Source: Oscillospiraceae bacterium (lineage in GTDB: Bacteria; Bacillota; Clostridia; Oscillospirales; Ruminococcaceae). Taken from it: a stretch of DNA of 64,000 nucleotides. The stretch is from NCBI GenBank assembly GCA_017472965.1, contig JAFUNR010000050.1:22112-86111 (forward strand), given 5' to 3'. Below are positions 3,750 through 47,922 of this stretch, in pieces. A model generated the notes under the pieces. It saw nothing but the letters and a program-made list of their open reading frames with translations. It did no database searches and had not been told where the DNA came from. Position numbers and translations under genes: made by a program. Every line of letters begins with the position of its first letter. Position 1 is the first letter of the stretch.

Positions 3750-4766
3750 TCAGACGGAACGCTCGGCGTCCGCCACGACTTCGCGCAGCAGCTCCATGTT
3801 GTCCAGCACCGAGCCGGCGCCGGCGGCCACGCAGTCCAGCGGATTTTCCGCCACATGAACGTCAATGCCGGTCTCCTTCTGGATCAGCTGGGAAAGGCCG
3901 CGCAGCAGCGCGCCGCCGCCGGTCAGGGTGATACCGCGGTCGATGATATCGGCAGCCAGCTCGGGCGGGGTCAGCTCCAGCGTCTCCTTGATGGCATCGA
4001 GGATCAGAGAAACGGATTCATCCAGCGCCTCGCGGATCTCCTCGCTGCTGATGGTGATGTTCTTGGGCAGACCATCCACCAGATTGCGGCCCTTGATGTC
4101 CATGGTGGTCTCTTCCTCCATGGGATAGGCGCTGCCGATGTTGATTTTGACCTGCTCGGCGGTACGCTCACCGATCAGCAGGTTGTATTTGCGTTTGATG
4201 AAGGCGATGATGGCAGAATCGAATTCATCGCCGCCGTTGCGGATGCTGCGGGCAGCCACGATGCCGCCCAGAGAGATGACGGCGACCTCGCTGGTGCCGC
4301 CGCCGATATCCACCACCATGTTGCCGGTGGGCTCCTCAATGGGCAGACCGGCGCCGATGGCGGCAGCCATGGGCTCCTCGATGATCATGACGGAACGGGC
4401 GCCGGCATGCTCGGCGGCCTCGCGCACGGCGCGGCGCTCCACCTCGGTAACGCCGGAGGGAATGCAGATGACGATACGGGGGCGGAACAGCACGGCTGCG
4501 CCGCAGGCACGCTTGATAAACAGCTTCAGCATGCTGGTGGTGATGTCGAAGTCGGCGATGACGCCGTCCTTCAGCGGACGGACAGCCACGATGCTGCCGG
4601 GGGTACGGCCGATGACCTGCTTGGCCTCCTGACCGACGCAGCGGACGGTGTCGGTTTTGGTATCCACGGCCACGACGCTGGGCTCACGCATGATGATGCC
4701 CTTGCCGCGCATAAAAACCAGAGTGTTGGCGGTGCCCAGATCGATACCGATATCTTTCGTAAACAT
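3750..4766 (-). CDS. mreB: Actin-like rod shape-determining protein MreB
   Basis: Canonical MreB N-terminus DIGIDLGTANTLV and actin-fold motifs (VVDIGGGTSEVAVISLGG, ITLTGGGALLRGL). Confidence 0.95.
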   Translation of the reverse strand: MFTKDIGIDLGTANTLVFMRGKGIIMREPSVVAVDTKTDTVRCVGQEAKQVIGRTPGSIVAVRPLKDGVIADFDITTSMLKLFIKRACGAAVLFRPRIVICIPSGVTEVERRAVREAAEHAGARSVMIIEEPMAAAIGAGLPIEEPTGNMVVDIGGGTSEVAVISLGGIVAARSIRNGGDEFDSAIIAFIKRKYNLLIGERTAEQVKINIGSAYPMEEETTMDIKGRNLVDGLPKNITISSEEIREALDESVSLILDAIKETLELTPPELAADIIDRGITLTGGGALLRGLSQLIQKETGIDVHVAENPLDCVAAGAGSVLDNMELLREVVADAERSV

Positions 4767-40110: not shown

Positions 40111-40122
40111 GGAGGTATGACC

Positions 40123-41412
40123 ATGGCGGAAAAACTGACGGTCAGATGCAAAAAGAACCCCATCATTCCCCGCATGGGCGTGTGCGATCCGCATATGCAT
40201 GTGTTTGACGGCCGCGTGTGGCTGCATGCTACCCACGATGCCGAGGCCGGCAGCCCCCGTTTCTGTATGCGTGACTGGCAGATCTGGTCCAGTGCCGACT
40301 GTGTGGAGTGGCAGCTGGAGGGTGTGGTGCGTCCCGAGGATATGTACATCGGCCCCAGCGAGCAGTGCTGGGCGGTGGATTGCGCCGAGCGCGGCGGCAG
40401 GTATTACTATTATTTTTCCGACGGCAACCAGTTCACCGGTGTGGCCGTGGCGGATTCGCCCGCCGGTCCCTTTAAGGATGCGCTGGGCAAGCCGCTGCTG
40501 GATGGCAGCCTGACCCCCACCACCGAGTACGACCCTGCCCTTTTTAAGGATGACGACGGCGAATACTATATCGTGTTCGGCGGGCCGGGCTGGTGCTACG
40601 GCGAGGGTGCAGGCTACTACATCGCCCGCCTGAATGAGGATATGATCTCTCTGGCCGAGCAGCCCCGCCGCATCGAGCTGAATCATGAGGCGGACGACAA
40701 GGCCTCGCTGAATAAATTCAACGGCCGCTACTACCTGACCTACGGCGGCTTTTACTCCGTGGCCGATAATGTCTACGGCCCTTATACCTTTGTGGGCCAC
40801 ACCGGCGCCAGCGGCGATCACACCAGCTATTTCGAGTGGAACGGTCAGATCTTCAATGCCATCACCGTCACCGACAGCTATGGCCACTACCGTTCCAGCG
40901 GGATGTGCTATGTGCATATCCGCGAAAACGGCGAGCTGGTCACCGATCCGCTGATCGTGGAATACGGCGTGGGCCAGTACGATTCCGACTGGAATAAAAT
41001 CGAAGCCGAATGGTATATGCGGGGCAAAAATGTGACCAAAAAAGAAAACGCCGATGTGCCCGGCTTCTCGGTCTCCTGTACGCAGCAGGCCAGTGTGATC
41101 TATCCCAATGTGCGCAATCTTTCCGATAAGATCGGCTTTGCCTTCTCCGGCGCCTGCACCGGCAACGGCGGTCTTGGCGGCGGCGAGGTGGAGCTTCGCC
41201 TGAAGGATGAGACCGGTCCGCTGCTGGGGGTCATGAAGTTCGGCTCCAGCGGGCCGCGGTTCAACTGGCGCGCCGGTGTGGGCGGTACGGTGTTCTTTGA
41301 ACAGCCGCTGCCCGATGTGTGCGACATCTGTCTGGTGCTCAAGCCCGGCAGAACCAGTGAGCTTCGTATCGATTCCTTCCGCTTCTTTGCCGAAGCGCTG
41401 GATAATCCCTGA
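40123..41412 (+). CDS. Glycoside hydrolase family 43. ATG at 40123 preferred over 40117 on RBS spacing.
   Basis: NPIIPRMGVCDPHMHVF, WAVDCAE, DPALFKDDDGEYYIVFG and YYIARLNEDM five-bladed propeller blocks, plus a C-terminal beta-sandwich. Confidence 0.85.
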   Translation: MAEKLTVRCKKNPIIPRMGVCDPHMHVFDGRVWLHATHDAEAGSPRFCMRDWQIWSSADCVEWQLEGVVRPEDMYIGPSEQCWAVDCAERGGRYYYYFSDGNQFTGVAVADSPAGPFKDALGKPLLDGSLTPTTEYDPALFKDDDGEYYIVFGGPGWCYGEGAGYYIARLNEDMISLAEQPRRIELNHEADDKASLNKFNGRYYLTYGGFYSVADNVYGPYTFVGHTGASGDHTSYFEWNGQIFNAITVTDSYGHYRSSGMCYVHIRENGELVTDPLIVEYGVGQYDSDWNKIEAEWYMRGKNVTKKENADVPGFSVSCTQQASVIYPNVRNLSDKIGFAFSGACTGNGGLGGGEVELRLKDETGPLLGVMKFGSSGPRFNWRAGVGGTVFFEQPLPDVCDICLVLKPGRTSELRIDSFRFFAEALDNP

Positions 41413-41471: not shown

Positions 41472-42725
41472 ATGCGTATTATCCCCAAGCAGGGTGTCTG
41501 CGATCCGCACGTCCATATTTTCAACGGCAAGGCCTATCTCTACACCAGTCACGACCGCGGCCCCGGTATGCCCATCTACCGCATGGATGACTGGCAGGTT
41601 TTTTCCAGTGACGATCTGCTGAACTGGAAGCTGGAATTCGTGCTGCGCCCGGAGGATACCTTCCTCGGCAAATGCGAGGAATGCTACGCCACCGATGCCG
41701 CCGAGCGCAACGGTAAGTATTATATGTATTTCTCCCACCAGCAGTACTGCACCGGCGTGGCTGTCAGCGAAAACGGCCCCGGCGGCCCTTACAAGGATGC
41801 GCTGGGCAAGCCGCTGCTGCCCAAGGGGCTGGTGGATACCGCCTGCTACGATCCCACCGTGTTTGTGGACGATGATGAAGCGAAAACGCCCTATATCATC
41901 TTTGGTTATACTGTATTCGGCAAAAAATATTACATCGCCCGCCTGAACGAGGATATGATCTCGCTGGCGGAAGCGCCCCGCGCCATCGAATTCACGGACG
42001 GCAAGGGCTGGCAGAACGACGCCACCTGGGTCACCAAGCGCAACGGCGTCTATTATCTGAATGCCCACGGCTCGGAATATGCCACCGCGGATAATATCTA
42101 CGGCCCGTACACCTACCGCGGCAATTTCTGTCACGATGCCTATGTGGATCACGGTACCTTCTTCAACTACCACAACCAGACCTATTTCACCTACGGCGTA
42201 CCGGAAAACTGGGGCGCGGAAAAAGTGGATCCCTTCTACCGCACCACCAAGATGATCTATGCCCATTATAAGGATAACGGCGATATCGTCATCGATGAGT
42301 TCATTCAGGATGCGGGCGTGGGTCAGTACGATGCCTCGTGGGATGCCATCAAAGGCGAGTGGTACTTTGCCGCCTCCGACGGCATTTACAAAAAGGAAAA
42401 TGCCGACGGCTTTGAGATGCGCGGCATCGGAAACGGTTCGTACCTGTATTACCAGAATGTCAACGGCATGCGCCAGAACGCCCTGATCAAATTCCTTGTG
42501 GCCGCCGAAAAGCCGGCCAAGATCGAGATCCGTGAGGGCAGCCCCTTCGGTGCGGTGCTGGGCGTGTGCAAGGTGCAGCCCACCGGCGGTCTGGAAAGCT
42601 TTGCCGAGGTCTCCTGCCGTCTGGAAAATACCCACGGCACCCACAGCCTGTGCTTTGTGTTCCGCGGTGAGGCGGACGAGGTGCTGCGCTTTGAGCATTT
42701 CGGCTTCGAGCACATCGTTACGTAA
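41472..42725 (+). CDS. Glycoside hydrolase family 43 (tandem paralogue)
   Basis: GVCDPHVHIFNGKAY, YATDAAE, DPTVFVDDD and YYIARLNEDMISLAE. The last block is identical at protein level to the upstream paralogue. Confidence 0.85.
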   Translation: MRIIPKQGVCDPHVHIFNGKAYLYTSHDRGPGMPIYRMDDWQVFSSDDLLNWKLEFVLRPEDTFLGKCEECYATDAAERNGKYYMYFSHQQYCTGVAVSENGPGGPYKDALGKPLLPKGLVDTACYDPTVFVDDDEAKTPYIIFGYTVFGKKYYIARLNEDMISLAEAPRAIEFTDGKGWQNDATWVTKRNGVYYLNAHGSEYATADNIYGPYTYRGNFCHDAYVDHGTFFNYHNQTYFTYGVPENWGAEKVDPFYRTTKMIYAHYKDNGDIVIDEFIQDAGVGQYDASWDAIKGEWYFAASDGIYKKENADGFEMRGIGNGSYLYYQNVNGMRQNALIKFLVAAEKPAKIEIREGSPFGAVLGVCKVQPTGGLESFAEVSCRLENTHGTHSLCFVFRGEADEVLRFEHFGFEHIVT

Positions 42726-42776: not shown

Positions 42777-44057
42777 ATGCTGAAAACAGAGCTCTTTTGC
42801 AAGGCACAGGATTTCAACAACGGCTCCGGCCCTGCGTGGAGTCACGGCAACTCTCCGATCGTGCGCCATGGTGATCGGGTATTCTGCACCAATTCCCGTG
42901 TGATCCCCGGACGGGAACCGTTCAACCACACCTCGATGGAGCTGTACGAAAAGCGCGGCGACGGTCCGTGGGAGCGGGTGTTCTGTGACGGTGGCGTGTT
43001 CCAGCGGGAGCCCTGCCCCGTGGTGCTGGCGGGGGATAAGCTGCTGGTCACCGTCAATCCCACCGCCCGCGCCTATGCGCCGGACGAGCCCTCCCGCGTG
43101 GTGCCCTGTACGCCGATGCTGTATGTGTTCGATGTGTCCGGTGAGGTGCGGCTGGAAAAGCGCCTGCCCATGCCGTGGGATACAAATACATACAATTTTC
43201 TCGATCATTCCTACCGCGGCGGCGCAGTGGATGCCGTTACCGGCGATGTGTTTTTTGACAACCTGCACTACCCGCCCGAAAGCGAGGGCGAGCATATCTA
43301 TGCCCTGCTGGATAAGGAGCTGAACACCCTGTATACGCGGGATCTGGTTTTTCCCGAGCGAGTCTGCTACCACACCGCCGCTGTGCGCGGCGGCGAGGCC
43401 TATGTTTTCGGCGTACAGGATATCGTGGAGCCGAACCGGGTCTGGCTGGATTACAAGCGGCAGGTCACCGGACAGGAGTGGGATTACGATTTCCGCAGCA
43501 TCTGGATGAAATACACACCGGATATCCGTACCCGGGATTTTGGAGCCGCCGAGCGTGTCTGCGACCGCGAGGCCACCTGCGGCTGGACGGATAATCTGGA
43601 TTGCTGCTATACCGCGGACGGCGCAATGCTGCTGGCGGTGCGGGAGCAGAATGTCCATCAGGCTTTCATGCGCGATCATTTCTTCCCGCAGGAGAAGCTG
43701 TATTCCCGCCTGAGCGTATTCCGCTTTGCCGGCGGTGTGCTGCAGGAGAAATTTGTTGTGGATGAAGCCGGCGAGGAAAACGGAACAGCGGCGGCATACG
43801 GCGCACTCTTCCATACCGCCGCTGACGGCAGTGTGTATCTGGCATGGAGCAAAGAAGGCGGCGAGAGCGGCCTTGCCGCCGGCACCTACCTGATGCCGTT
43901 TGCCACCCGCGAAAGCCGGTATCTGTGCCCGCAGACCGGCACGCTGTTCGGCAGCAAGACCCGTCTTGGCGCTGCGCCGGATGACCGTATGGATCTGCTG
44001 TGGTATACAAAGAAGGAACTCATCTACGGCAGCTTTGATCTCTCCGCTGAAAAGTGA
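42777..44057 (+). CDS. Hypothetical protein (426 aa, soluble, no motif recognised)
   Basis: AAGGAG RBS 7 nt upstream of the ATG. High-GC codon usage like its neighbours. Last gene of the URO-D/GH43 unit. Confidence 0.5.
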   Translation: MLKTELFCKAQDFNNGSGPAWSHGNSPIVRHGDRVFCTNSRVIPGREPFNHTSMELYEKRGDGPWERVFCDGGVFQREPCPVVLAGDKLLVTVNPTARAYAPDEPSRVVPCTPMLYVFDVSGEVRLEKRLPMPWDTNTYNFLDHSYRGGAVDAVTGDVFFDNLHYPPESEGEHIYALLDKELNTLYTRDLVFPERVCYHTAAVRGGEAYVFGVQDIVEPNRVWLDYKRQVTGQEWDYDFRSIWMKYTPDIRTRDFGAAERVCDREATCGWTDNLDCCYTADGAMLLAVREQNVHQAFMRDHFFPQEKLYSRLSVFRFAGGVLQEKFVVDEAGEENGTAAAYGALFHTAADGSVYLAWSKEGGESGLAAGTYLMPFATRESRYLCPQTGTLFGSKTRLGAAPDDRMDLLWYTKKELIYGSFDLSAEK

Positions 44058-44074
44058 GTATATATCCCGCGATA

Positions 44075-44110
44075 CAAAAAGCCTTCGTGCCGGCCGGCGC
44101 GAAGGCTTTT
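44075..44110. terminator. Left copy of a duplicated 36-nt palindromic bidirectional terminator (AAAAAGCCTTCGTGCCGGCCGGCGCGAAGGCTTTTT)
   Basis: 16-nt arms around GGCC with one G-T mismatch, flanked by A5 and T5. 35/36 identical to the copy at 45471-45506. Confidence 0.85.
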
Positions 44111-44132
44111 TCATTTGTTGGCATTGAAACGG

Positions 44133-44348
44133 TTACGTGGCTGAATCTTTTTTGTCGGAAAGTCCGAGTAAATAATCTGTACTCACATGATGAATATGTG
44201 CCAATGCAATCAGCACAGCGGTTGGTATATCCCGTTGTCCTAATTCATAGTTACTGTACACTTGTTGTGAACAGTGCAGCAAGGATGCCATATCCCGCTG
44301 CGTGATATCCTTATCTTCACGTAGCTCGCGTATACGACGGTATAGCAT
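44133..44348 (-). CDS. XRE-family helix-turn-helix transcriptional regulator (71 aa). Start at MLYRRIRELRE.
   Basis: IRELREDKDITQRDMASLLHCSQQVYSNYELGQRDIP is a textbook HTH_3/Cro-C1 motif. Confidence 0.85.
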   Translation of the reverse strand: MLYRRIRELREDKDITQRDMASLLHCSQQVYSNYELGQRDIPTAVLIALAHIHHVSTDYLLGLSDKKDSAT

Positions 44349-44378
44349 TAAAATCACCCGACTTAGTTTAACACACAA

Positions 44379-44419
44379 CAATTTGCAGTATTGACAAATA
44401 CCGCAAATTGCGGTAAGAT
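44379..44419 (+). promoter_or_regulatory. Sigma-70 promoter (TTGACA-17-TAAGAT) embedded in two overlapping palindromes (putative XRE operators)
   Basis: TTGACA at 44391-44396 and TAAGAT at 44414-44419. A 32-nt near-palindrome CAATTTGCAGTATT-GACA-AATACCGCAAATTG spans 44379-44410. A perfect 13-nt palindrome CCGCAAATTGCGG lies at 44401-44413. Confidence 0.6.
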
Positions 44420-44440
44420 GTGAATTGAGAGGTGATAATA

Positions 44441-45268
44441 ATGTCAGTTGTGAACAGTAAGGGTGAAGAGATAATTAGTCAGGTTGGAGTAAATTACTTC
44501 ATCAAAAGGTTTGGTGTACTATATCAGTGGGTCAAAAATAACGGAAGTGACAGTGAAGAAATCTGTGCAGACGAATGGAAATCCCCTTTTCTGTTTCTTT
44601 CAAATGAGATTAGCTTAACGTATCGAATCGGATGGCACGAAGGCGGGAAAATAGAAAATCTGCAACTTGTTGTATCTTCACTGGTAAAAGGGAGTATGGA
44701 GGATATTGAGGATTATTTAAGAGAAAAAGCTTTTTGCGTAGCGGCTATGAAGGATGCGAAAGCGGAAAACCCTCAATACATTGTGGACTTGTTCCGTTTC
44801 TGGGAGATATTTGACGATCTAGATTTAAAGATTGAGAGTTTGTACGGCAATCTTGCCATCTGCTATAGTACAGAAATACCTGGCTTTATGTTGCCCGGAA
44901 ATGTAAATAGGGAAATTGAAACATTGATTGACCAGCTTGTGTATTTGATCCGGCAGAAATATCCAGACTGTAAGCTGCACGTGGATAAACCGGTTTCATC
45001 GACAGGATGTTACATTGCTACAGCGGTTTACGGTTCATATGACTGTCCTGAGGTCTGGACGCTGCGTCGATTTCGGGATGAAATATTGAAAAATAGCATT
45101 TGGGGTCGTATATTTATCAGATTTTATTATATGGTAAGCCCTAAATTGGTCGAGCATTTTGGTAAAAGAGACTGGTTCCACTGTTTTTGGAGAAGAAACC
45201 TTGATAGATTTGTTGCGTATTTGAAAACTGAAGGCTTTTCTGATGCGGCATATATTGACAAAAATTGA
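44441..45268 (+). CDS. Hypothetical protein (275 aa): unknown N-terminal domain plus a C-terminal CYIATAVYGS...LRRFRD module
   Basis: GAGAGG RBS before the ATG at 44441. The ORF-track GTG at 44432 sits too close to the RBS. The C-terminal motif is described under findings. Confidence 0.6.
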   Translation: MSVVNSKGEEIISQVGVNYFIKRFGVLYQWVKNNGSDSEEICADEWKSPFLFLSNEISLTYRIGWHEGGKIENLQLVVSSLVKGSMEDIEDYLREKAFCVAAMKDAKAENPQYIVDLFRFWEIFDDLDLKIESLYGNLAICYSTEIPGFMLPGNVNREIETLIDQLVYLIRQKYPDCKLHVDKPVSSTGCYIATAVYGSYDCPEVWTLRRFRDEILKNSIWGRIFIRFYYMVSPKLVEHFGKRDWFHCFWRRNLDRFVAYLKTEGFSDAAYIDKN

Positions 45269-45287
45269 TGGTGTAAGGAGAAAAAAC

Positions 45288-45431
45288 ATGGCTGATTACT
45301 GGTGCAAATGTAAGAACTGCAAAAACTGTGATCCTACGGAGAAAAAAGGGTACAAGTGGTATTGTGAGGTATATAAAACTTATGAGGATCCGGATGAAGT
45401 GAAGGAGTGCAGAAAATACGCAGAAAGGTGA
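45288..45431 (+). CDS. Small Cys-rich protein (47 aa, putative zinc-binding)
   Basis: AAGGAG at 45275-45280, 7 nt before the ATG at 45288. Sequence is MADYWCKCKNCKNCDPTEKKGYKWYCEVYKTYEDPDEVKECRKYAER (six Cys). Confidence 0.55.
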   Translation: MADYWCKCKNCKNCDPTEKKGYKWYCEVYKTYEDPDEVKECRKYAER

Positions 45432-45470
45432 TTGCTTGGTTCGCATCTAACGTTTAGAATACGGTGAATT

Positions 45471-45506
45471 AAAAAGCCTTCGCGCCGGCCGGCGCGAAGG
45501 CTTTTT
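45471..45506. terminator. Right copy of the duplicated 36-nt palindrome (perfect: AAAAAGCCTTCGCGCCGGCCGGCGCGAAGGCTTTTT)
   Basis: Perfectly self-complementary 36-mer. Serves as the terminator for the convergent PII-like gene ending at 45523. Confidence 0.85.
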
Positions 45507-45522
45507 GTTGCTGCAAAACCGT

Positions 45523-46284
45523 TTATTTCAGATCGGTGATGTCGTGGGCGAAATCGTCCTCGGGGGATTTCAGGCCGATGGCATCCTCCACCGGCAGTGA
45601 GATCACCAGACCGTGGGCATCGCTGTGGAAGCCGCAGTTCTCGCCGATGGCCTGCATGATGGCCTTTTTGTAGGGCTGCTGTGCTACGATCAGCACGATC
45701 TCCTTTTCCGGCTGGATGCTGATACCCCAGAATTTCATGGTCTCCTCATTCACCAGACGGCGGGCGGGGAACACCGTGCCGCCGCGTGCGCCCGCGGGAC
45801 GGGCGGCATTCATCACTTCTTCGCTGTAGCCCTGATTGACGATGGCCATGATCAGGGAACAATTCTGTACGCTCATATCGATCACATCCCTTTCCATGGA
45901 GCCGCGGCCGCCCTGTGCGCCCAGGCTCTCGATCATTTTGATGATAACGCTGCTGCCGCCGGATACCGGAACGGTAAAGGCGATGCCGCTGTTGGTGGCT
46001 ACAAGCCCCAGATCCACCGTCAGACGGCGCAGCATGGCGTCGGCGTATTTTTTCGGCATCATGCTGATCAGCACGGTTTTATCGCGGCTGCCCAGACCCA
46101 GCGTTTCGAGGATCGCGCTGGGGGCGGTGCCGTGGGCCATAAACTGATACTGCAGGGGTACCTGACCCTTGGCGAAAAGCCGGATGGCTTTTTCTGCCAG
46201 TTTCAGGGTGGTGATCACCACCAGCAGACGGTACTCCTGTCTGGGAGCGGCGCTGGTTGCCGGGGTGGAAGGTTCATTGCTCAT
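45523..46284 (-). CDS. Tandem P-II-like (GlnB-fold) domain protein
   Basis: Two approximately 100-aa repeats with beta-alpha-beta PII-like patterns (RLLVVITTLKLAEKAI... and SLIMAIVNQGYSEEVMNAAR...). Adjacent to the DUF1538 membrane gene, a pairing I recall as conserved. Confidence 0.7.
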   Translation of the reverse strand: MSNEPSTPATSAAPRQEYRLLVVITTLKLAEKAIRLFAKGQVPLQYQFMAHGTAPSAILETLGLGSRDKTVLISMMPKKYADAMLRRLTVDLGLVATNSGIAFTVPVSGGSSVIIKMIESLGAQGGRGSMERDVIDMSVQNCSLIMAIVNQGYSEEVMNAARPAGARGGTVFPARRLVNEETMKFWGISIQPEKEIVLIVAQQPYKKAIMQAIGENCGFHSDAHGLVISLPVEDAIGLKSPEDDFAHDITDLK

Positions 46285-46296
46285 TGTGCGTCCTCC

Positions 46297-47922
46297 TCAA
46301 AAATCAATAATTTCATCGGCGCCGGCAGATTCGCTGCTGCCGCTGCCGGCAGCATCCTCATCCAGATCCACGATATCGTCGCCGCCCGGTACCTCAGCAG
46401 CGGTCACAGCGGCGGTCTTTTCAATGGCGGCCATCTTGATGCGGTACTGCAGACCCATGATCTGCACGGCGATCAGCGGGGTCAGCGCCACCAGCGCCAC
46501 CACACCGAAGGCATCGGTCATCAGGTTGCCCCCCGCGGCCTGACATGCGCCGATGGAGAGCGGCAGCAGGAAGGTGGTGGTCATCGGGCCGCTGGCCACG
46601 CCGCCGGAGTCAAAGGCAATACCCACGAACATGGGCGGTACCAGTCGGGAAAGCACCAGTGCGATCAGATAACCGGGGATCACGATCCAGTAAAGGGAAA
46701 TGCCGGTGAGCACGCGCAGCATGGCAAGTCCCACACTGATGGCCACACCGATGGAAAGACAGGCATTCATCTGCCCGGCCGAGATGGTGCCGTTGGTCAC
46801 CGCCTGCACCTGCTTGTTCAGCACCTGAATGGCAGGCTCCGCCTTGACGATGAAATAACCGATCAGCATGCCGATGGGCACAAGAAACCACTTCCATGCC
46901 GAGCCGGCCAGATCGCTGCCCAGCTGTGCACCAACGGGGGAGAAGCCCACATTGACACCGCACAGGAACAGTACAAGACCCAGGATCGTGTAGATAAAGC
47001 CGACGATCATCCGGCGCAGCTGGGTGTGGTGAAAACGCTTTGTCAGCAGCTGGAAAAGCAGGAAAACACCGGCAATGGGCGCCAGCGAGACCAGAACCTC
47101 CTGCCCGTAGCGGGGCAGCTGGCGGGCGAATACCAGCACCGCATCGCGGGTGGTGGCCACATCTGCCAGATCGCCGCCGGAGTACGCCGCCCCGGTTGGC
47201 CGGAAAAAGCAGCCGAGGACCATGACGGCCAGAATGGGGCCAACGCTTGCCAGTGCCACCAGACCGAAGCTGTCGTCCGCCGCATGGCGGTCGCCGCGCA
47301 CCGCGGCAAGACCCACGCCCAGCGCCATGATAAAAGGTACAGTGATGGGGCCGGTGGTCACGCCGCCGGAGTCAAACGCCACGGCCAGAAAATCCGGCGG
47401 GATCAGGAACGAAAGCCCGATGAGCGCCACATACAGGATGATCAGCAGCGTAGACAGTGAAATGCCGAACAGAATACGCAGGATCGCCAGCGCTACGAAA
47501 ATGCCGACGCCTGCGGCAACGGTGAAGATCAGCACCCGGTTGGGAATGCTGGGCACCTGCTCTGCCAGCACCAGAAGATCCGGCTCGGCAATGGTGATGA
47601 TGGCGCCCATGGCAAAGCCGAGGAGCACCAGCAGCCATACACGGCGGGATTGGGTCATGTGGGCGCCGATACCCTTGCCCAGCGGGGTCATTGCCATATC
47701 CGCACCCAGCTGGAACAGCGCCATGCCGACAACCAGCATCATGGCCCCCAGCAGGAACAGCAGAACGGTTCCGGCGGACATGGGTACTAGCAATACGCTC
47801 AGTGCCAGCACGATCACGGTGATGGGCGCAACGGCGGACAGGGATTCCTGAAGCTTTTCCTTCAGCAGAGGATTCAAAGCGTGCACCACCCTTTCTTGTC
47901 TTGCGGCTGTGCGCGCAGCCAC
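46297..47922 (-). CDS. DUF1538-family polytopic membrane protein (duplicated domain) with an acidic C-terminal tail. Start uncertain.
   Basis: Two internally similar halves (FDSGGVTTGPITVPFIMALGVG and FDSGGVASGPMTTTFLLPLSIG). The longest ORF starts at the GTG at 47922. Confidence 0.7.
   Translation of the reverse strand: MAARTAARQERVVHALNPLLKEKLQESLSAVAPITVIVLALSVLLVPMSAGTVLLFLLGAMMLVVGMALFQLGADMAMTPLGKGIGAHMTQSRRVWLLVLLGFAMGAIITIAEPDLLVLAEQVPSIPNRVLIFTVAAGVGIFVALAILRILFGISLSTLLIILYVALIGLSFLIPPDFLAVAFDSGGVTTGPITVPFIMALGVGLAAVRGDRHAADDSFGLVALASVGPILAVMVLGCFFRPTGAAYSGGDLADVATTRDAVLVFARQLPRYGQEVLVSLAPIAGVFLLFQLLTKRFHHTQLRRMIVGFIYTILGLVLFLCGVNVGFSPVGAQLGSDLAGSAWKWFLVPIGMLIGYFIVKAEPAIQVLNKQVQAVTNGTISAGQMNACLSIGVAISVGLAMLRVLTGISLYWIVIPGYLIALVLSRLVPPMFVGIAFDSGGVASGPMTTTFLLPLSIGACQAAGGNLMTDAFGVVALVALTPLIAVQIMGLQYRIKMAAIEKTAAVTAAEVPGGDDIVDLDEDAAGSGSSESAGADEIIDF

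Follow-up and report, generated by a model that had tools for sequence, protein, structure and literature searches.

Small blocks of accessory genes that lack a recombinase are known from several settings. In the pdif modules of Acinetobacter plasmids and in cis-mobilizable elements (CIMEs), 1–3 kb of recombinase-less cargo, often toxin-antitoxin or other accessory genes, lies between two short palindromic sites. Phage morons and small genomic islets are units of foreign base composition with their own promoter and terminator, set between resident genes, again with no recombinase. Cassettes under the control of an XRE-family protein include those with CapH-type regulators of cyclic-oligonucleotide-based anti-phage signaling systems (CBASS), C-protein-controlled restriction-modification systems, and HTH-XRE antitoxins. 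In Cas1-Cas2 spacer integration, staggered attacks at the borders of an often palindromic repeat of ∼30–36 bp, followed by gap filling, leave the repeat on both sides. Here we describe a three-gene island in 64 kb of DNA from an Oscillospiraceae bacterium (GenBank assembly GCA_017472965.1, contig JAFUNR010000050.1, positions 22,112–86,111; hereafter the window). The components are in part familiar: the largest cargo protein carries a domain of the catalogued CFI-box-CTERM family, and the XRE protein is an ordinary HTH_3 regulator. The island differs from moron-like islets, pdif modules, and CIMEs in that the site bounding it is a host terminator.

The island is a foreign cassette of 1,359 bp. 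It entered the one bidirectional terminator that two convergent native genes have in common, and in doing so duplicated the 36-bp hairpin unit, no more and no less, in direct orientation. The features that define the insertion are the following.

44076..44111, no strand: left palindrome copy; a T at position 13 gives a G-T or A-C stem mismatch; now terminates the 426-aa gene and the XRE gene
45471..45506, no strand: right palindrome copy, a perfect palindrome; at present the terminator of the 47-aa and P-II-like genes
44112..45470, no strand: inserted foreign DNA, 1,359 bp, 39.7% G+C (GC); missing from four related contigs (L006, L130, L131, and L126)

The two copies of the 36-nt palindrome, AAAAAGCCTTCG(T/C)GCCGGCCGGCGCGAAGGCTTTTT, are identical at 35 of 36 positions and bracket the insert. 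The pattern has only these two copies in the window, with 0 expected from 100 dinucleotide-preserving shuffles, and is laid out as 15-nt inverted arms around a 6-nt CGGCCG center. Whichever strand is considered, each copy is predicted to form a strong hairpin (−27 to −34 kcal/mol, z −3.6 to −5.6), and because an A-run and a T-run lie on either side of the stem, each is a bidirectional intrinsic terminator; an Rfam scan of 43800–45800 found nothing reaching the gathering score. The GC of the insert (39.7%) compares with 59.3% for the rest of the window, in which the lowest other 1,359-nt stretch stands at 49.8%, and GC at third codon positions (GC3) is 0.39–0.48 in the three cargo genes versus 0.73–0.76 in the flanking genes. 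A preliminary description of this DNA, made from the letters alone, had proposed two 35/36-identical palindromes around foreign-looking low-GC DNA, with a minus-strand XRE gene, divergent 275-aa and 47-aa open reading frames (ORFs), and native genes ending at 44057 and 45523. Coordinates, GC, GC3, and ORFs all agree with that account, and the island it recognized is real, its length being 1,359 bp rather than 1,360 bp. The same description extended a weaker similarity ∼20 nt past each copy; this proves to be at chance level, with 1,373 of 5,000 shuffles scoring equally, so the repeat is exactly the hairpin unit. The inner ends of the insert have no significant inverted repeat. The earlier statement that there is no terminal inverted repeat is undecidable, since the window palindrome is a direct and an inverted repeat at once.

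Two genes converge on the duplicated terminator from outside.

42777..44057, plus strand: native 426-aa gene, function unknown, left convergent neighbor; GC 0.60, GC3 0.73
45523..46284, minus strand: native gene for a 253-aa P-II-like protein, right convergent neighbor, with DUF1538 upstream

The wider flanks hold GH43 genes, URO-D, DUF1538, the P-II-like gene, and nrdD, and their synteny is kept in relatives. In L006, an uncultured Faecalibacterium-like metagenome-assembled genome and the closest genome in the species collection, orthologs of the P-II-like gene (89% identical) and the 426-aa gene (75%) run toward each other across an 81-nt spacer, which holds one palindromic terminator. Three further contigs, L130, L131, and L126, located through their P-II-like homologs (85–94% identical), are likewise insert-free and have a single hairpin after the P-II-like gene. 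The 426-aa orthologs beside the empty site in L006 and L130 are 75–81% identical, and the empty-site hairpin of L131 matches the window palindrome at 30 of 36 positions. With one terminator in each of four insert-free contigs, and with the match in L131, the palindrome is identified as the resident terminator, duplicated by the insertion. The preliminary description had read the locus as a foreign insertion into one shared bidirectional terminator and had predicted an empty site with a single palindrome in relatives; all four contigs bear this out. An ancestral island deleted in relatives is ruled out by the break in GC and GC3 together with the four one-terminator empty sites. As the 36-bp hairpin is duplicated, both new convergent gene pairs keep a terminator. 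An exact-protein look-up places the cargo proteins at this same locus only, in a handful of contigs from one study, and the island DNA has no similar sequence in phage, plasmid, and viral-contig collections (viral contigs searched with a 44-nt exact pattern).

The cargo consists of three ORFs only, all intact and with good ribosome-binding sites, transcribed from a divergent control region.

44133..44348, minus strand: 71-aa XRE/HTH_3 repressor, DNA-binding domain only (Pfam HTH_3 47.9 bits, cutoff 23)
44378..44419, no strand: divergent control region with putative operators and promoter; three AATT(T)GC(A/G)GTA copies, overlapping inverted repeats
44441..45268, plus strand: 275-aa ORF, comprising head, linker, and CFI-box-CTERM domain
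44441..45004, plus strand: N-terminal head, residues 1–188; orphan; predicted α/β fold
45005..45268 (stop included), plus strand: S/T-G linker and CFI-box-CTERM domain (NF041770), residues 189–275; four predicted helices
45288..45431, plus strand: 47-aa protein rich in cysteine (C8, C11, C26, and C41 conserved), with a TYEDPD motif

No recombinase, transposase, or integrase domain was found among the three cargo ORFs (Pfam, NCBIfam), as the preliminary description had also reported, and no integrase lies in the flanks within 41–48.5 kb of the window.

The 275-aa protein, first described as unknown and without a family, carries a catalogued domain. Residues 190–257 match NCBIfam NF041770 (CFI-box-CTERM) over profile positions 1–68 of 69, with 75.9 bits (cutoff 40, E = 1.5e-21); the domain is C-terminal, as in the family, and contains the Cys-[FY]-I-A-T-A box (GCYIATAVYGS, residues 189–199), its start reading G-C-Y-I-A-T-A-V-Y-G-S-Y-D-C-P. 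A search of 5.8 billion proteins returned 4,104 homologs, which have in common the last ∼86 residues only. The box starts 84–94 residues before the C terminus, behind a Ser/Gly linker, and the same C-terminal placement is seen in 117 of the 120 top homologs. An alignment of 60 proteins has 30 invariant columns, including G189, C190, Y191, A193, T194, C202, P203, R209, R210, R212, and D213. The Clostridia subgroup to which the window protein belongs is distinguished by the second invariant cysteine, C202, and by a longer, very conserved tail ending in PY.D, neither of which is present in the proteobacterial members inspected. The tail of the window protein is 22% aromatic, with a net charge of +4 and no transmembrane segment; it is basic and amphipathic.

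As elsewhere in the family, where heads differ from protein to protein, the box (CYIATA here) follows a head of its own kind; the head of the window protein differs in having no detectable relative, an exhaustive phmmer/HMMER search of residues 1–188 against 1.84 billion representative proteins returning only the self match. The AlphaFold model of the whole 275-aa protein has a mean predicted local distance difference test (pLDDT) score of 78, with the four helices of the CFI-box tail above 90 and the head at lower confidence. Foldseek searches with this model against PDB and BFVD gave no match at E ≤ 1e-3, the weak similarities being to YbjN and type III chaperone-like folds (E 0.3–1.5). A PDB sequence-profile search with the 275-aa family gave nothing at E ≤ 1, the protein has no match in PADLOC-DB v2 at E ≤ 1 and none in Pfam or PHROGs, and a literature search on the CFI-box and its motif found no paper.

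The XRE protein is most similar to phage repressor families (phrog_8, E = 3e-20; RstR-like, E = 1e-11). Its matches to antitoxin models (MqsA, PezA, HipB-type) have E values of 1e-2 to 1e-3, all far under the cutoffs, and in PADLOC it matches generic HTH models only (HTH_VI, 3.7e-9; capH, 4e-7). The 92-nt divergent intergenic region contains a −35 element, TTGACA (44391–44396), and a −10 element, TAAGAT (44414–44419), and the three AATT(T)GC(A/G)GTA half-sites overlap both, as in a textbook operator. In this arrangement, the XRE protein probably binds the three putative operator half-sites and represses the divergent two-gene operon, whose expression it would hold low until derepression. A small divergent HTH_3 protein with palindromic putative operators over the cargo promoter is also what XRE-controlled defense and addiction cassettes possess. 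In contrast to CapH-type CBASS and the other systems of this kind, the window cargo matches no known effector, sensor, or toxin, and a partner protease of the CapP kind is missing.

The 47-aa protein has 13 homologs, 61–77% identical and conserved over the whole length, and to judge from its four cysteines (Cys4) it probably binds zinc. It has no match in Pfam, PHROGs, or PADLOC (E ≤ 1), and a comparison with PDB sequence profiles gave four chance-level matches only (E 0.44–1). Its AlphaFold model is of low confidence (pLDDT 58). At five other loci (L010, L018, L028, L030, and L048) the Cys4 gene comes immediately after a CFI-box gene, an answer to the question, raised in the preliminary description, of whether the two cargo genes occur together elsewhere; there is good support for regarding the Cys4 protein as the usual predicted partner of the CFI-box protein in this subgroup.

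Several other gene arrangements concern the Cys4 or CFI-box proteins. Homologs of the Cys4 protein occur among Hsp70-like, GrpE, J-domain-like, and FtsK genes in clusters that lack a CFI-box gene (L011 560–9632, L026 2507–7667), and on a Haliscomenobacter plasmid a CFI-box protein adjoins an Hsp70-family protein and an AAA ATPase; the Cys4 and CFI-box proteins may have a link to non-canonical Hsp70 systems. At L042 (4360–6039), an XRE gene faces a gene for a 160-aa protein with a Cys-rich N terminus, a GGSSGG linker, and a related “CYLTTAC...LRSFRD” domain, followed by a CFI-box gene; the similarity of this N terminus to the 47-aa protein is not significant. At L015 (4001–6356; also L016 and L017), 6 nt separate a CFI-box gene with the same head type from a downstream PqqD-like gene, after which come a radical SAM gene and a 72-aa ORF whose C terminus is Cys-rich. 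This set resembles the maturases of ribosomally synthesized and post-translationally modified peptides (RiPPs) and is not present in the window. A RiPP precursor was considered for the 47-aa protein itself and rejected, there being no PqqD or radical SAM genes in the window and conservation along its full length.

Comparison with sister cassettes points to a self-contained, recurrent unit with exchangeable heads. In L018, L028, and L030, an XRE gene, a divergent CFI-box gene, and then a Cys4 gene form low-GC blocks between unrelated housekeeping genes (L018 has an additional Sel1-like gene in the cassette). The XREs of these three are 62–84% identical to one another and 39–46% identical to that of the window, and their promoter/operator region is conserved; their heads are unrelated. 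Between L030 (5124–5860) and L048 (591–1327), the DNA is 98.6% identical from the first CFI-box codons through the Cys4 gene, with no similarity upstream, which is a clean head swap at the Ser/Gly linker. The unit can also be reduced: L010 has the CFI-box and Cys4 pair with no XRE gene within 10 kb, and on the viral contig L119 an XRE gene faces a gene for a 102-aa protein that is essentially the CFI-box domain alone. These comparisons give good support to a modular 275-aa protein, with a predicted hypervariable and exchangeable specificity head, a flexible Ser/Gly linker, and a constant 86-aa CFI-box tail.

The family is broadly distributed: over 4,000 protein clusters were found, from Clostridia, Proteobacteria, and Bacteroidota as well as from plasmids and phages. 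Head types among the homologs include Zn-ribbon, TPR/Sel1, LRR, DUF2726, InlB-repeat, and cold-shock domains. CFI-box genes are present on 49 plasmid records, one phage record, and 19 IMG/VR contigs; on 5.2-kb Acinetobacter plasmids they are the sole cargo, and in viral contigs they lie near XRE repressors, an antirepressor-like gene, and replication genes. In a census of their neighbors at 99 loci, the neighborhoods are heterogeneous and most CFI-box genes are solitary. An XRE-family neighbor was found at 7 loci, and of the 74 loci whose upstream sequence was long enough, 9 have an XRE-like ORF within 2.5 kb upstream; a serine recombinase is nearby at 10. An operon of SPFH (Band_7_1), a 231-aa membrane protein, and a Zn-ribbon CFI-box protein recurs at 15 metagenome loci (for example, L075 2241–5276, L081, L087, and L093). 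At L073 (1193–6246) and L092 (1474–6329), the CFI-box gene is in a classical integrative element of ∼5 kb with 46–47-nt direct repeats of a tRNA 3′ end and a serine recombinase.

The duplicated terminator of the window is not a one-off curiosity, since the same signature was found at further loci. A direct-repeat scan was made around the CFI-box gene in all loci collected, with the other genes of the same loci as controls, and a hairpin duplication was found at three independent loci besides the window, the hairpins being unrelated in sequence. In the lineage of L074 (also L088, L084, L096, L099, and L102), an exact 33-nt hairpin repeat (4075–4107 and 5352–5384 in L074) flanks a Zn-ribbon CFI-box insert of 1.2–1.4 kb with 38–44% GC in a host of 60–65% GC (L074/L088 lineage). 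The first copy in L074 is the terminator of the upstream gene, and the second lies 16 nt past the CFI-box stop codon; the hairpin is asymmetric, having G-T wobbles and a loop of 6 nt, and its two copies point the same way. The promoter region of this insert (4223–4299) has a counterpart 3.2 kb upstream, a promoter at 993–1070 with 82% identity. In L104, a direct repeat of ∼141 nt, 95–98% identical (1919–2056 and 3830–3966), starts at a terminator hairpin and surrounds a 1.77-kb CFI-box insert. The repeat comprises the hairpin and the last ∼60 nt of a small membrane-protein gene, leaving two small genes with identical C termini and different N termini. In L055, an exact 40-nt hairpin repeat (605–644 and 2531–2570) brackets a 1.9-kb insert of 33–39% GC, which carries two genes without a CFI-box (229 and 359 aa) and is adjoined by a Mob_Pre relaxase gene. 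As this cargo is unrelated, the scar is not tied to CFI-box cargo. These loci hint that DNA may be inserted at hairpins by a general route that has yet to be described; a full-text literature search on terminator duplication at insertions found no paper describing hairpin-exact duplication.

The explanation that we favor as a whole joins the insertion at the shared terminator, a regulated head-tail cassette, a role in genetic conflict, and an origin of the duplication by hairpin nicking, and we hold it tentatively, at just short of an even chance. For the duplication, staggered structure-specific nicks at the base of an extruded hairpin or cruciform are in our view the likeliest source, though less likely than not. 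The terminator hairpin or cruciform would extrude; symmetric nicks at its base, in the style of a Holliday-junction resolvase, would leave a full hairpin copy on each broken end; and fill-in synthesis with joining of a foreign fragment would yield a duplication bounded exactly by the hairpin. The product would be analogous to that of Cas1-Cas2, in which an exact repeat is likewise duplicated on both sides of the inserted DNA; the window differs in having no Cas1 or Cas2, leader, or array, and its insert is 1.36 kb of genes rather than a spacer. For the cargo, we tentatively propose, at appreciably less than an even chance, an accessory module in conflict among mobile elements, phages, and their hosts, acting in defense or exclusion. 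Specificity would come from the head of the 275-aa protein. The CFI-box tail, rich in aromatic residues and arginine, would form the invariable active portion, serving as an effector or for docking, perhaps at the membrane. Such a role is favored by the horizontal spread of the module, its control by a repressor, its presence on plasmids and phages, and the pairing of an invariant tail with a head that evolves fast and can be swapped.

Several points weigh against this explanation. Among the sister cassettes, no flanking duplication surrounds L018, L028, or L030, so the scar is not obligatory for CFI-box cargo, and the flanks of L010 have a 13-nt inverted match only, reached by 9 of 3,000 shuffles. 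The duplication lengths vary (33, 36, 40, and ∼141 nt), no nuclease is implicated in hairpin nicking, and integration of a circle with a hairpin copy, or replication template switching at a stalled hairpin, would have the same end product. On the side of function, there is no experimental or homology link of the cargo to any function: the 275-aa and 47-aa proteins match no defense, toxin, or effector family (PADLOC, PHROGs, Pfam), and the 275-aa model matched no PDB or BFVD structure at the Foldseek threshold given above. The Cys4 protein is also found away from CFI-box genes. Defense models in the census (type III methylase, Shedu, a few candidate families) are scattered with no clear enrichment, and the 15 loci with SPFH and a membrane protein beside a Zn-ribbon CFI-box protein point to membrane housekeeping. 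The preliminary description had seen in the island the footprint of a toxin-antitoxin or anti-phage cassette while noting that it matched no defense system that could be named. The latter stands, as no cargo protein matches a PADLOC defense model beyond the generic HTH hits of the XRE protein. Of the former, the compact foreign module stands, while the toxin-antitoxin layout does not, and with no PADLOC match and no clear enrichment of defense neighbors, defense or exclusion is no more than a reasonable guess.

The alternative that survives best, though somewhat unlikely, is that the island is a recombinase-less module that entered as a circle with one 36-bp site by a single crossover, dependent either on RecA or on a tyrosine, Xer-type, or relaxase enzyme supplied in trans. 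The repeat is confined to the palindrome, whose 15-nt arms and 6-nt CGGCCG center resemble the cores of lox, FRT, and dif, a likeness drawn partly from general knowledge. Repeats as variable as 33–141 nt would fit a homology-driven single crossover, and in L073 and L092 CFI-box genes do sit in tRNA-derived, att-bounded elements with a serine recombinase. Like pdif modules and CIMEs, the window island is recombinase-less and has two copies of a short palindromic site. Considered as an integrative element with att sites, of the CIME or integrative mobilizable type, it has direct repeats and no integrase in the region of the window examined (41–48.5 kb), although a trans-acting enzyme might lie elsewhere in the genome. 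However, the site is a host rho-independent terminator and not dif or att. The repeat is GC-rich, host-like, and homologous to the empty-site terminator, so that the element would first have to acquire host DNA; the exact cassette is known from one genomic context, and similar DNA is missing from the phages, plasmids, and viral contigs searched. The hairpins of the four loci are, moreover, unrelated, so no single site-specific enzyme fits all. Unrelated hairpins and differing repeat lengths together make neither one site-specific recombinase nor a conventional transposase a likely agent. An autonomous transposon or insertion sequence was rejected on several counts: no transposase or recombinase, a 36-bp host-derived duplication, no significant inner inverted repeat, and lengths of 33, 40, and ∼141 nt elsewhere. 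An integron cassette was rejected because the copies have no bulged bases, the sequences following them (GTTGGCA, GTTGCTG) are unlike GTTRRRY, and no integrase lies within 41–48.5 kb. The asymmetric L074 hairpin, repeated in direct orientation, excludes inverted and hairpin-telomere models, including protelomerase-type fusion.

With respect to the cargo, we regard it as quite improbable that the island is a mobile-element leftover of the moron type, a fragment of lysogeny control caught by illegitimate recombination and having no current role or one in superinfection exclusion. The XRE protein is indeed closest to phage repressor families, viral contigs place CFI-box genes beside XRE repressors and antirepressor-like and replication genes, and the unit has its own promoter and terminator. 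As with phage morons and small genomic islets, it is a recombinase-free block of foreign GC between resident genes. It differs from morons in lying outside a prophage, in having its own repressor, and in being bounded by an exact host-terminator duplication, a feature that, to our knowledge, has not been described for morons. The island and its immediate surroundings contain no other phage gene, the housekeeping flanks are syntenic, and the three ORFs are intact with good ribosome-binding sites; the recurrence of this compact three-gene arrangement elsewhere on chromosomes is the behavior of a unit and not of debris. A moron within a prophage was rejected, the flanks (GH43, URO-D, DUF1538, P-II-like, nrdD) not being those of a prophage.

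Very unlikely, in our estimation, is a type II toxin-antitoxin or tripartite addiction module with the XRE protein as antitoxin, the CFI-box protein as toxin, and the Cys4 protein as helper. A small, horizontally acquired module, the weak XRE matches to MqsA, PezA, and HipB-type models (far under cutoffs), and CFI-box genes as sole cargo of 5.2-kb Acinetobacter plasmids would suit it. The XRE gene, however, is divergent rather than co-transcribed with the cargo and is sometimes absent, as at L010, which makes the classical arrangement unlikely; its product stops at the HTH domain and has no extension that could bind a toxin. CFI-box genes mostly stand alone, and no recognized toxin family was matched in Pfam, NCBIfam, PADLOC, or PHROGs, the CFI-box being the only hit.

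The last alternative, to which we give similarly slim weight, is an envelope function outside conflict, in which the CFI-box tail would dock variable heads on the membrane or on an SPFH/PspA-type complex in the manner of YdjG: the 15 SPFH operons and the aromatic, basic, amphipathic tail with no transmembrane segment are consistent with it, but the window head is different and an orphan, no SPFH or membrane partner lies nearby, and a mobile accessory gene would better account for the low GC, the control by XRE, the swapping of heads, and the occurrence on plasmids and phages. YdjG is a Zn-ribbon membrane protein of the B. subtilis pspA-ydjGHI operon (PMC8581546, PMC9239133). The operon of SPFH, 231-aa, and CFI-box proteins is reminiscent of pspA-ydjGHI, an analogy that hints at membrane docking of the CFI-box.

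At its broadest, the locus would exemplify a large undescribed family of conflict systems, in which the head of a CFI-box cassette recognizes the invader and the tail with the Cys4 protein forms a new effector, together with a recombinase-less route of gene acquisition in gut Clostridia that would strike extruded terminator hairpins, copy them exactly, and thereby keep transcription terminated on either side of the new DNA; we consider this unlikely. Short of that, a widespread domain is now available in a tractable setting, a three-gene unit of less than 1.4 kb with a repressor switch and a natural empty-site control, and the natural head swaps suggest where specificity lies. The scar, if general, would explain how foreign genes are slotted between convergent genes with termination kept, and would provide a simple sequence signature for recent acquisitions in metagenomes.

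The surroundings of the island have some features of their own. The species behind L126 has neither the two GH43 genes nor the 426-aa gene, so the left side of the insertion site is itself variable. In the window, the tandem paralogous GH43 genes (40117–41412 and 41472–42725) share stretches of DNA that are 85–88% identical. The DUF1538 gene has an internal 75-nt repeat (46580–46654 and 47342–47416, 72% identical) that reflects a two-domain internal duplication. Finally, 231-aa P-II-like homologs (P0158, P0166, and P0171) are called “transposase” in NCBI records, which looks like a propagated mis-annotation.

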